From contig CAVQMM010000001.1 of assembly GCA_963713615.1 (NCBI GenBank), positions 2,304,001-2,368,000 of the forward strand: 64,000 bases of DNA, given 5' to 3'. Numbering within the stretch: the stretch's first letter is position 1; each line of letters begins with the position of its first letter. A program made the translations under genes and the position numbers. Source of the DNA: an uncultured Chlamydiae bacterium (GTDB lineage Bacteria > Chlamydiota > Chlamydiia > Chlamydiales > JAJFMA01). Shown piece after piece: positions 16,899 through 17,098 of the stretch. A model generated the notes under the pieces. It searched no databases, was not told the DNA's origin, and saw only the letters and a program-made list of their open reading frames with translations.

Positions 16899-17098
16899 TT
16901 TTAAACGTTTTGTCAGAAAAACCGCTCATTCTAAATGTTTTGCCAGAATTCTAAACGTTTTGCCAGAAAATGGCCCAATTTTAAACGTTTTGCCAGAATT
17001 CTAAACGTTTTGCCAGAAAAAAGCCGATTTTTAAACGTTTTGCCAAAAATCTAAACGTTTTGCTACAAGAGAGCCAGTTTTGAACCGTTTTGCCAAAA
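16899..17098. repeat. Phased array of eight 20-bp repeats (TTYTAAACGTTTTGCCAGAA) with four 10-bp variable spacers
   Basis: Units start at 16899, 16929, 16949, 16979, 16999, 17029, 17049 and 17079 (alternating 30/20 bp). Confidence 0.92.

Follow-up and report, generated by a model that had tools for sequence, protein, structure and literature searches.

Introduction

The closest described counterparts of the locus examined here are Fic enzymes that bind DNA and type IV antitoxins. CccR of Yersinia pseudotuberculosis, a Fic protein with a C-terminal HTH, represses its own promoter, and its operator, in the accessible text, is composed of two inverted 10-bp repeats 26 bp apart (PMC9755527). According to the available portion of the source, SoFic of Shewanella oneidensis binds its own promoter, in the 100 bp that precede the start, and autorepression was suggested (10.64898/2026.07.09.737422; see also PMC12249575, likewise available in part). 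With regard to CbFic2 of Coxiella burnetii, DNA binding is described in the accessible text as switching activity (PMC10628234). The available parts of these three sources give no operator sequence for either SoFic or CbFic2. The type IV antitoxins AbiEi and Rv2827c exhibit, in the accessible texts, cooperative autorepression accompanied by DNA bending, and the AbiEi CTD is required for repression (PMC3985639, PMC7319586). In other respects, the PDC systems were predicted from genomic embedding, and the available main text of that report names neither S24 nor Fic (Payne et al., 10.1101/2024.01.29.577857).

Here, we analyse a 64,000-nucleotide stretch of DNA from an uncultured Chlamydiae bacterium, hereafter the window, in which the gene of a 512-aa Fic protein is preceded by an array of direct repeats. 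This array represents an expanded module of three boxes, spaced 30 then 20 bp and named triad below, and it is likely an operator bound by the Fic protein to repress its own gene. Fic autoregulation as such is already known, whereas the triad and the repeats of the PDC-S24 family are apparently new.

The Repeat Array Upstream of fic

The array (16899..17098, + strand) consists of eight 20-bp direct-repeat boxes with the consensus TTYTAAACGTTTTGCCAGAA, starting at positions 16899, 16929, 16949, 16979, 16999, 17029, 17049, and 17079. The box-start distances are 30-20-30-20-30-20-30, and the whole can be described as four tandem 50-bp units, each formed by a box (20), a spacer (10), and a box (20). 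The initial annotation had parsed it correctly, coordinates included, into eight 20-mers and four 10-nt spacers with a 50-bp period, no indels, and an end located 16 nt 5′ of the fic ATG (17115). In place of the 1-2-2-2-1 arrangement that it proposed, however, the boxes are naturally grouped into polar 30-20 triads. Triad 1 (16899..16968, + strand) comprises boxes 1-2-3, spaced 30 then 20, and corresponds to the basic module of the family. Triad 2 (16949..17018, + strand) is made of boxes 3-4-5, box 3 being common to triad 1, and triad 3 (16999..17068, + strand) of boxes 5-6-7, box 5 being common to triad 2. Box 8 lies 30 bp past box 7, without a third box behind it.

The palindromic core attributed to the boxes, the exact AAACGTTT, is present in six of the eight, but boxes 2 and 8 deviate. 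No inverted pair was found in 16300-17500; the boxes are direct repeats harbouring a short palindromic core. The four spacers had been regarded as divergent, and their rate of change is indeed about fivefold that of the boxes (1.3 versus 0.25 minimal changes per site), but they are related to each other, with the pattern AA..GCC. in common. Variable columns amount to 8 out of 10 in the spacers versus 10 out of 40 in the boxes (Fisher p=0.002), and pairwise differences within the array concern 57% and 13% of the positions, respectively. This higher variation of the spacers argues for selection or homogenisation acting on the boxes and not on the whole unit. At 10.5 bp/turn, the boxes have phases of 0, 309, 274, 223, 189, 137, 103, and 51 degrees. 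The idea that all cores fall on one helical face therefore holds for the three boxes of one triad (within about 90 degrees), but not for all eight, since the array spirals over almost one full turn.

The 17-mer core has eight matches in the window (with at most three mismatches) versus 0.23 expected, and none of 100 shuffles reached eight. A scan of the 3.97-Mb host genome revealed no second triad of the array's box elsewhere, and no regulon was seen; the next-best triad had a minimum score of -6.6, versus 26.9-34.1 in the array, and the best other pair scored 7.3. A DNA search of 40 relatives returned no homologue of the array. Two contigs of a public RNA run (X11) match 16941-17139 with 0 differences, which makes an assembly artefact unlikely over that segment. 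These contigs have a depth of 2-3 and are strandless, none matches elsewhere in 8001-28000, and DNA carry-over is possible in this run, which was picked together with the stretch of the window. The DNA runs cover the region in a patchy manner, with no joint spanning the insertion described below. Of note, the box 1/spacer junction has a 15-nt duplicate (GTCAGAAAAACTGCT) at 16840-16854, within the nagZ coding region and 72 nt ahead of the matching segment of the array; it may be due to chance.

Two other readings of the array were discarded. A coding function is contradicted by the three stops of frame 1, the frame in register with fic, and by periods of 20 and 50, which are not multiples of 3. 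CRISPR arrays are defined by regular repeats, unrelated spacers of about 25-50 nt, and cas genes nearby. Here, the spacers are 10 nt long and related, half of the boxes abut, no Rfam CRISPR repeat was found, and no cas genes are among the neighbours. The host genome carries other repeats of its own. One set, outside the window and unrelated to the array (C1:2587008-2588886), has a unit beginning with GTTTCAATCCACGCCCC and a period of about 65 bp; it is CRISPR-like and presumably of a type I-C-like kind. Large near-perfect tandem arrays, with units of 455-473 bp and up to 8.5 copies, are located at C1:476524-478890, 1173286-1175476, 2273505-2277548, and 2600813-2603362, and many dispersed tandem repeats of 34-89 bp share a GGATGCACACGGATCTAGGAGG-type core.

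Genomic Site and Insertion

The array is flanked on its left by a resident nagZ-like gene for a GH3 glycosidase (15747..16898, - strand), whose true start is likely 16877, as suggested by an upstream GAGG and by the N-termini of congeners. On its right, fic (17115..18653, + strand), coding for the 512-aa Fic protein that is a PADLOC PDC-S24 candidate, is followed by a resident PsbP-like gene (18678..19265, + strand). In two congeners (G001 and G003), nagZ and the psbP-like gene are immediate neighbours in divergent orientation, about 135-175 nt apart, with neither fic nor the array, and a third (G002) has neither psbP nor fic at the site. Since both are absent from the site in congeners, the array and fic form one cassette, which is most simply explained by an insertion taking the place of most of the former intergenic region. 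Of 300 other genomes of the class, 15 possess the fic gene, versus none of the three congeners. The site is chromosomal, between housekeeping genes, and PDC-S24 Fic genes are also present on 261 plasmid records. Among the sampled loci, L078 and L087 have the same upstream sequences as L003 and L008, and the order of the host includes loci titled Simkaniaceae and Waddliaceae.

Further features were noticed in the surroundings. A 2-hydroxyacid dehydrogenase-like gene (window 14467-15741) occurs intact at the syntenic position of G003, is absent in G002, and has no match at that position in G001, where the only hit is an upstream overlap. The intergenic segments 13675-13717, 21340-21970, and 27200-27380 of the window have dispersed repeats in common, which give rise to joints and raised depth in DNA runs.

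Conservation of the Triad in Fic Homologues

The 512-aa Fic protein has at least 4,526 relatives, from which 164 loci were sampled: 68 genome loci, 16 class loci including that of the window, and 80 metagenome loci. They span about a dozen phyla, as assigned from record titles, and are kin, so that the counts below overstate independent events. In a first autocorrelation test, carried out on 57 dereplicated regions out of 66 with 230 nt upstream, mean z values at lags 20, 30, and 50 reached 2.30, 2.25, and 3.05, versus 0.13, 0.07, and 0.02 in 114 upstream regions of other ORFs from the same loci. Peaks appeared only at these lags, and z was at least 3 in 38/57 loci versus 4/114 controls. For an enlarged test, eight of the 164 loci were dropped owing to a match that began late and nine had short flanks; dereplication left 77 loci plus the window. 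The values for the 77 loci at lags 20, 30, and 50 were 5.1, 5.6, and 5.6, the other 100 lags not exceeding 1.5, and the top lag out of 103 was one of these three in 51 loci. The maximum in downstream (59), coding (76), and far-upstream (66) control sets was 1.4. A held-out Pseudomonadota set (29 loci from the 33 matching genomes among 401; 25 of them had the flank, and dereplication left 22 new ones) repeats the signal more weakly, with 4.1, 3.6, and 2.4 at lags 20, 30, and 50 and at most 1.1 elsewhere, the top lag being 20 or 30 in 9 of the 22 loci.

The triad is polar with respect to the gene. Of 78 loci, 63 have a best three-box seed that is spaced 30-then-20 when read towards the gene, versus 10 with 20-then-30 and 5 with 30-30, and the corresponding numbers in the held-out set are 13, 6, and 3 (n=22). 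A score of at least 30 for the 0/30/50 triad was obtained in 69 of 100 dereplicated loci, window included, versus 28 for the reversed order 0/20/50, and in 2, 0, 2, 3, and 1 loci for the spacings 0/31/52, 0/32/53, 0/21/52, 0/28/47, and 0/33/55. In the host genome, 41 of 2101 ORFs reach this score, and the array of the window ranks first. Among plasmid-borne members from named species, five out of seven have a triad scoring at least 30; the Bradyrhizobium member scores 29.4, and that of Deinococcus has no triad above controls.

Several loci (L003, L032, L050, L076, L107, L172) hold two triads at free distance, which designates the triad as the unit, and most homologues possess only one or two triads. 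The array of the window corresponds to the 50-bp triad unit expanded in tandem to four copies, through which the triads come to share their end boxes. Expansions also occur in other chlamydial loci, namely, L081 (30-20-30-20-30-30) and L082 (30x4), as well as in L036. The boxes differ by lineage around a common A-tract...TTTT frame, with typical bases such as GCGT in Bacteroidota and some Gammaproteobacteria, AATCCC in Campylobacterota, and AACG in the window. Over aligned triads, the AA/TT period is 10.1, partly by construction since the alignment is registered on T-tracts. The initial annotation had called for a survey of the roughly 500-aa Fic relatives; these do carry upstream arrays whose spacing is conserved as their sequence changes, which supports its suggestion of a putative protein-binding array tied to the Fic gene. 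The triad is therefore a family-wide and apparently undescribed cis-element: in print, in a survey of mainly openly accessible papers and main texts, we found no description of PDC-S24, of the 30/20 triad, or of the repeats of the family. In other respects, some members are split or contain an internal stop (L203, L040, L013, L064, L083).

Predicted Promoters and Position of the Triad

The predicted fic promoter (17040..17069, + strand), which is the best plus-strand score with our own crude weights, associates a -35 element, TTGCCA, in box 6, a gap of 18 nt, and an extended -10 element, TG-n-TACAAG, in box 7. This -10 is imperfect, its final T being missing. The deviation that creates it is unique to box 7, and it mirrors the TG-n-TACAAT that L009, L012, L027, and L032 show in the equivalent place of their boxes. 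On the minus strand, two promoter-like sites lie within the array (16928..17005), with TTTAGA-16-TAAAAT at 17005-16978 and TTTAGA-16-TAGAAT at 16955-16928; the search yielded three sites in all versus 0.7 expected, and those inside the array may drive nagZ.

Overlap between the proximal triad and the best sigma-70-like site was observed in 52 of 70 non-Bacteroidota loci, versus 25 expected, an excess inflated by the AT-richness of the boxes and by their location where promoters are expected. The position of the triad varies: it lies upstream of the -10, over the -10, over the RBS or ATG, or partly inside the coding sequence, as in Bacteroidota and Alphaproteobacteria. Such varied placement over promoter, RBS, and start is easier to reconcile with steric repression on DNA than with an RNA element. 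With regard to the coding cases, boxes 2 and 3 of the proximal triad are inside the coding sequence in L041-L068 (Bacteroidota), L190, L196, L213, and L214, where they encode an N-terminal extension (e.g., ...ASVFHG...); this protein segment thus appears shaped by the DNA boxes.

The PDC-S24 Fic Protein

The PADLOC model PDLC04966 matches the protein with an E of 9.3e-173 (residues 10-503 on profile positions 6-491 of 497), and matches 5/5 proteins scanned. PDC-S24 is a candidate anti-phage class. The catalytic motif HPFx(D/E)GNGRxxR, conserved in the family, is intact (HPFTDGNGRLHR at 330-341). In class II Fic proteins, an inhibitory helix with the motif (S/T)xxxE(G/N) is located N-terminal of the Fic core. 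Here, the motif reads S213-x-x-x-E217, and both S213 and E217 are invariant in 150/150 aligned sequences; the following residue is R in this protein, and homologues have G, R, H, N, or K there. The core of the 512-aa protein is, by its sequence, a class II Fic domain and a predicted AMPylase.

The AlphaFold model has a pLDDT of 94 (96 for the N-terminal 165 residues). Its nearest folds are CbFic2 (Z 23.6, rmsd 2.9, 299 residues aligned, range to residue 502), SoFic, and CccR. The CbFic2 alignment contains about 70 residues more than matches restricted to the Fic core, and its extension to residue 502 places a C-terminal three-helix domain (~440-502) at the position of the HTH in CbFic2, SoFic, and CccR. 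This domain is modelled without wing strands, with an acidic third helix and a median net charge of -1, and it gave no Pfam or PDB sequence match and no HTH sequence signature. The N-terminal domain (~7-170) is basic (median +5), with no coherent match in Pfam and PDB sequence searches. Its best structural match is the Rv2827c CTD (1zel 98-293; 149/165 aligned), with a Z of 7.5 and an rmsd of 4.5, values that, according to the tool, unrelated models commonly reach; the next match has a Z of 5.2, AbiEi (6y8q 68-195) a Z of 4.3, and Foldseek E values are 0.5-1.0. The resemblance to AbiEi was first guessed from a sequence pattern, before the structure search. We tentatively describe this domain as an AbiEi-CTD-like fold, a suggestive likeness only, and the whole protein as a possible fusion of such a domain with a Fic enzyme. 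No description of an AbiEi-CTD/Fic fusion was found in print, within the same literature coverage as above.

The likeness to the known systems is thus partial. As for CccR, with which model residues 163-510 align (7xux 5-379, Z 20.6), a Fic enzyme is associated with repeats at its own promoter, and by this analogy PDC-S24 may repress its own gene. However, the window has three or more direct boxes at 30/20, and not the inverted repeat described in the accessible CccR text, and the PDC-S24 protein exceeds CccR by 130 aa, carries an additional N-terminal domain, and shows no HTH signature in the sequence of its C-terminal domain. SoFic and CbFic2 have in common with it a class II Fic fold with an N-terminal inhibitory helix (Z 22-24), but both are without the ~170-aa N-terminal domain, and the match of PDC-S24 to the NCBIfam SoFic model is limited to E 2e-5 and 24 bits, versus a cut-off of 550. 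The CTDs of AbiEi and Rv2827c provide the best structural matches of the modelled N-terminal domain. In the available texts, these antitoxins are described as acting by an N-terminal wHTH on 23-bp inverted repeats, beside the AbiEii toxin. By contrast, PDC-S24 has no wHTH before the domain, is associated with direct repeats, is fused to Fic, and lacks a conserved partner gene. An AbiEii nucleotidyltransferase is coded by 2 of 113 flanking ORFs, and the neighbours in the window are GH3 and PsbP-like, so that no AbiE bicistron is present.

Candidate Readers of the Box

Each neighbouring gene family is limited to at most 4 of 100 loci, which leaves fic as the only conserved cis partner of the triad. 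In 53 loci, the box distance between loci with close proteins was 0.420 in different phyla versus 0.430 in the same phylum, and for distant proteins, 0.569 versus 0.556. As judged from these comparisons, the box sequence tracks the Fic protein, whatever the phylum of the host, with a contribution of the co-transfer of gene and leader; a reader encoded by the host is thereby disfavoured. The candidates for reading the box are the N-terminal AbiEi-CTD-like fold, the N-terminal region having been considered as a possible binder in the initial annotation too, and the C-terminal helical domain of the model. In a partial Mantel analysis of 70 loci, r was 0.21 (p 0.003) for the N-terminal domain and 0.10 for the C-terminal one. 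As a pointer to an N-terminal reader, this analysis was set aside: the signal was reproduced when GC content served as a control (r 0.185), and, without Campylobacterota, the best signal shifts to the linker, so it is not evidence for a reader domain.

With regard to natural forms that are truncated or devoid of Fic, the Atlas search with a homologue (P0015) yielded clusters of 261-318 aa covering the N-terminal part only and indistinguishable from contig-end fragments, and a profile search yielded many short matches of scattered length, among which contig-end fragments are possible. With regard to defence genes, PADLOC models match 21 of 113 flanking ORFs (115 scanned, two being pieces of the gene itself), a count without a baseline, and the member at L051 is located between hsdS and hsdR. 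PDC-S01 genes adjoin PDC-S24 in L012, L032, and L029, the first also with a SoFic-like gene.

Alternative Explanations and Proposed Mechanism

It is unlikely that the triad is a promoter architecture read by host factors such as the RNA polymerase alpha-CTD, a nucleoid protein, or intrinsic curvature. All boxes do present an A-tract then TTTT, with the 10.1 period that arises partly by construction; -35 and -10 elements are often embedded in them, and no DNA-binding domain is recognised by sequence in the Fic protein. However, the boxes within a locus share lineage-typical bases that follow the protein and not the host phylum, the location of the triad with respect to the predicted promoter ranges from upstream through overlapping to downstream, even inside the coding sequence, and few host ORFs reach its score. 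That the boxes act on RNA, as a translational operator in the fic leader or as a processed repeat RNA serving as antitoxin or guide, is quite improbable. The proximal triad is in the leader in many loci, covering the RBS or ATG, and the only X11 contigs in 20 kb of the window fall on the array, but with the shallow, strandless depth and the joint selection mentioned above. The processed RNA considered in the initial annotation is disfavoured by a fold z of -0.66, no better than shuffles, and by the lack of any Rfam family at gathering score, the one sub-threshold match having 19.8 bits versus 208. Furthermore, the best -10 is located just past box 3 in about ten loci (e.g., L075, L076, L100, L132), where the whole triad would be untranscribed, and exact 10-bp multiples suit double-stranded DNA.

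An iteron, centromere, or recombination site aiding the replication, segregation, or movement of the cassette appears very unlikely, even though fic is patchy, inserted here, and plasmid-borne elsewhere. No conserved Rep, Par, recombinase, or other neighbour was found in 100 loci, no periodic signal exists at the downstream end (59 loci), and the signal is always at the 5′ end of the gene, where it may overlap the start codon; a placement over promoter, RBS, or start is typical of an operator, which speaks against the iteron/centromere-like array first envisaged. A neutral minisatellite produced by replication slippage is extremely improbable for the array, and is already refuted for the triad by the arrays upstream of homologues. 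The four 50-bp units clearly derive from tandem duplication, and the small number of triads in most homologues indicates that the extra copies of the window may be dispensable; against this reading, the boxes are five times more conserved than the spacers within the array, the same geometry recurs across phyla with a different sequence, and similar expansions exist in L081 and L082.

The operator reading, which we consider the likely one, has difficulties of its own. Neither terminal domain has an HTH or DNA-binding family match by sequence, 31 of the 100 loci score below 30 and the Deinococcus member shows nothing above controls, the known Fic autorepressor CccR uses, in the accessible text, an inverted and not a direct repeat, and co-transfer of gene and leader would equally make the boxes follow the protein. 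If the Fic protein is indeed the repressor, several protomers would bind the three boxes cooperatively, and the bound protein would cover the promoter, RBS, or start codon, leading to autorepression of fic in the manner of CccR on its inverted repeat. The spacing at exact multiples of 10, and not 10.5, together with the phased A/T tracts, would be consistent with bound DNA that is bent or wrapped. More speculatively, the unequal spacing might reflect an asymmetric oligomer on such DNA, and DNA binding might also gate catalysis, as for CbFic2. The four-fold amplification of the 50-bp unit, with its three overlapping triads, might provide tighter repression of a potentially toxic AMPylase; the extra copies could equally be a near-neutral product of slippage.

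A further and rather unlikely possibility is that DNA itself would act as the 'antitoxin'. The Fic protein would wrap the triad at 10.0 bp/turn as an asymmetric oligomer and be non-toxic when bound, in line with the effect of DNA on CbFic2, the array would sense chromosome integrity, and its loss or displacement driven by phage would free an active AMPylase. If so, expanded arrays would raise the buffering capacity.

The geometry of the triad is unusual in being polar, unequal (30/20), set at exact 10-bp multiples, and kept across phyla as the box sequence changes, which implies a non-standard, probably asymmetric protein-DNA complex. The triad provides a specific candidate DNA target for a family of uncharacterised Fic proteins flagged as a phage-defence candidate, and its lineages offer a natural library of cognate protein-box pairs.
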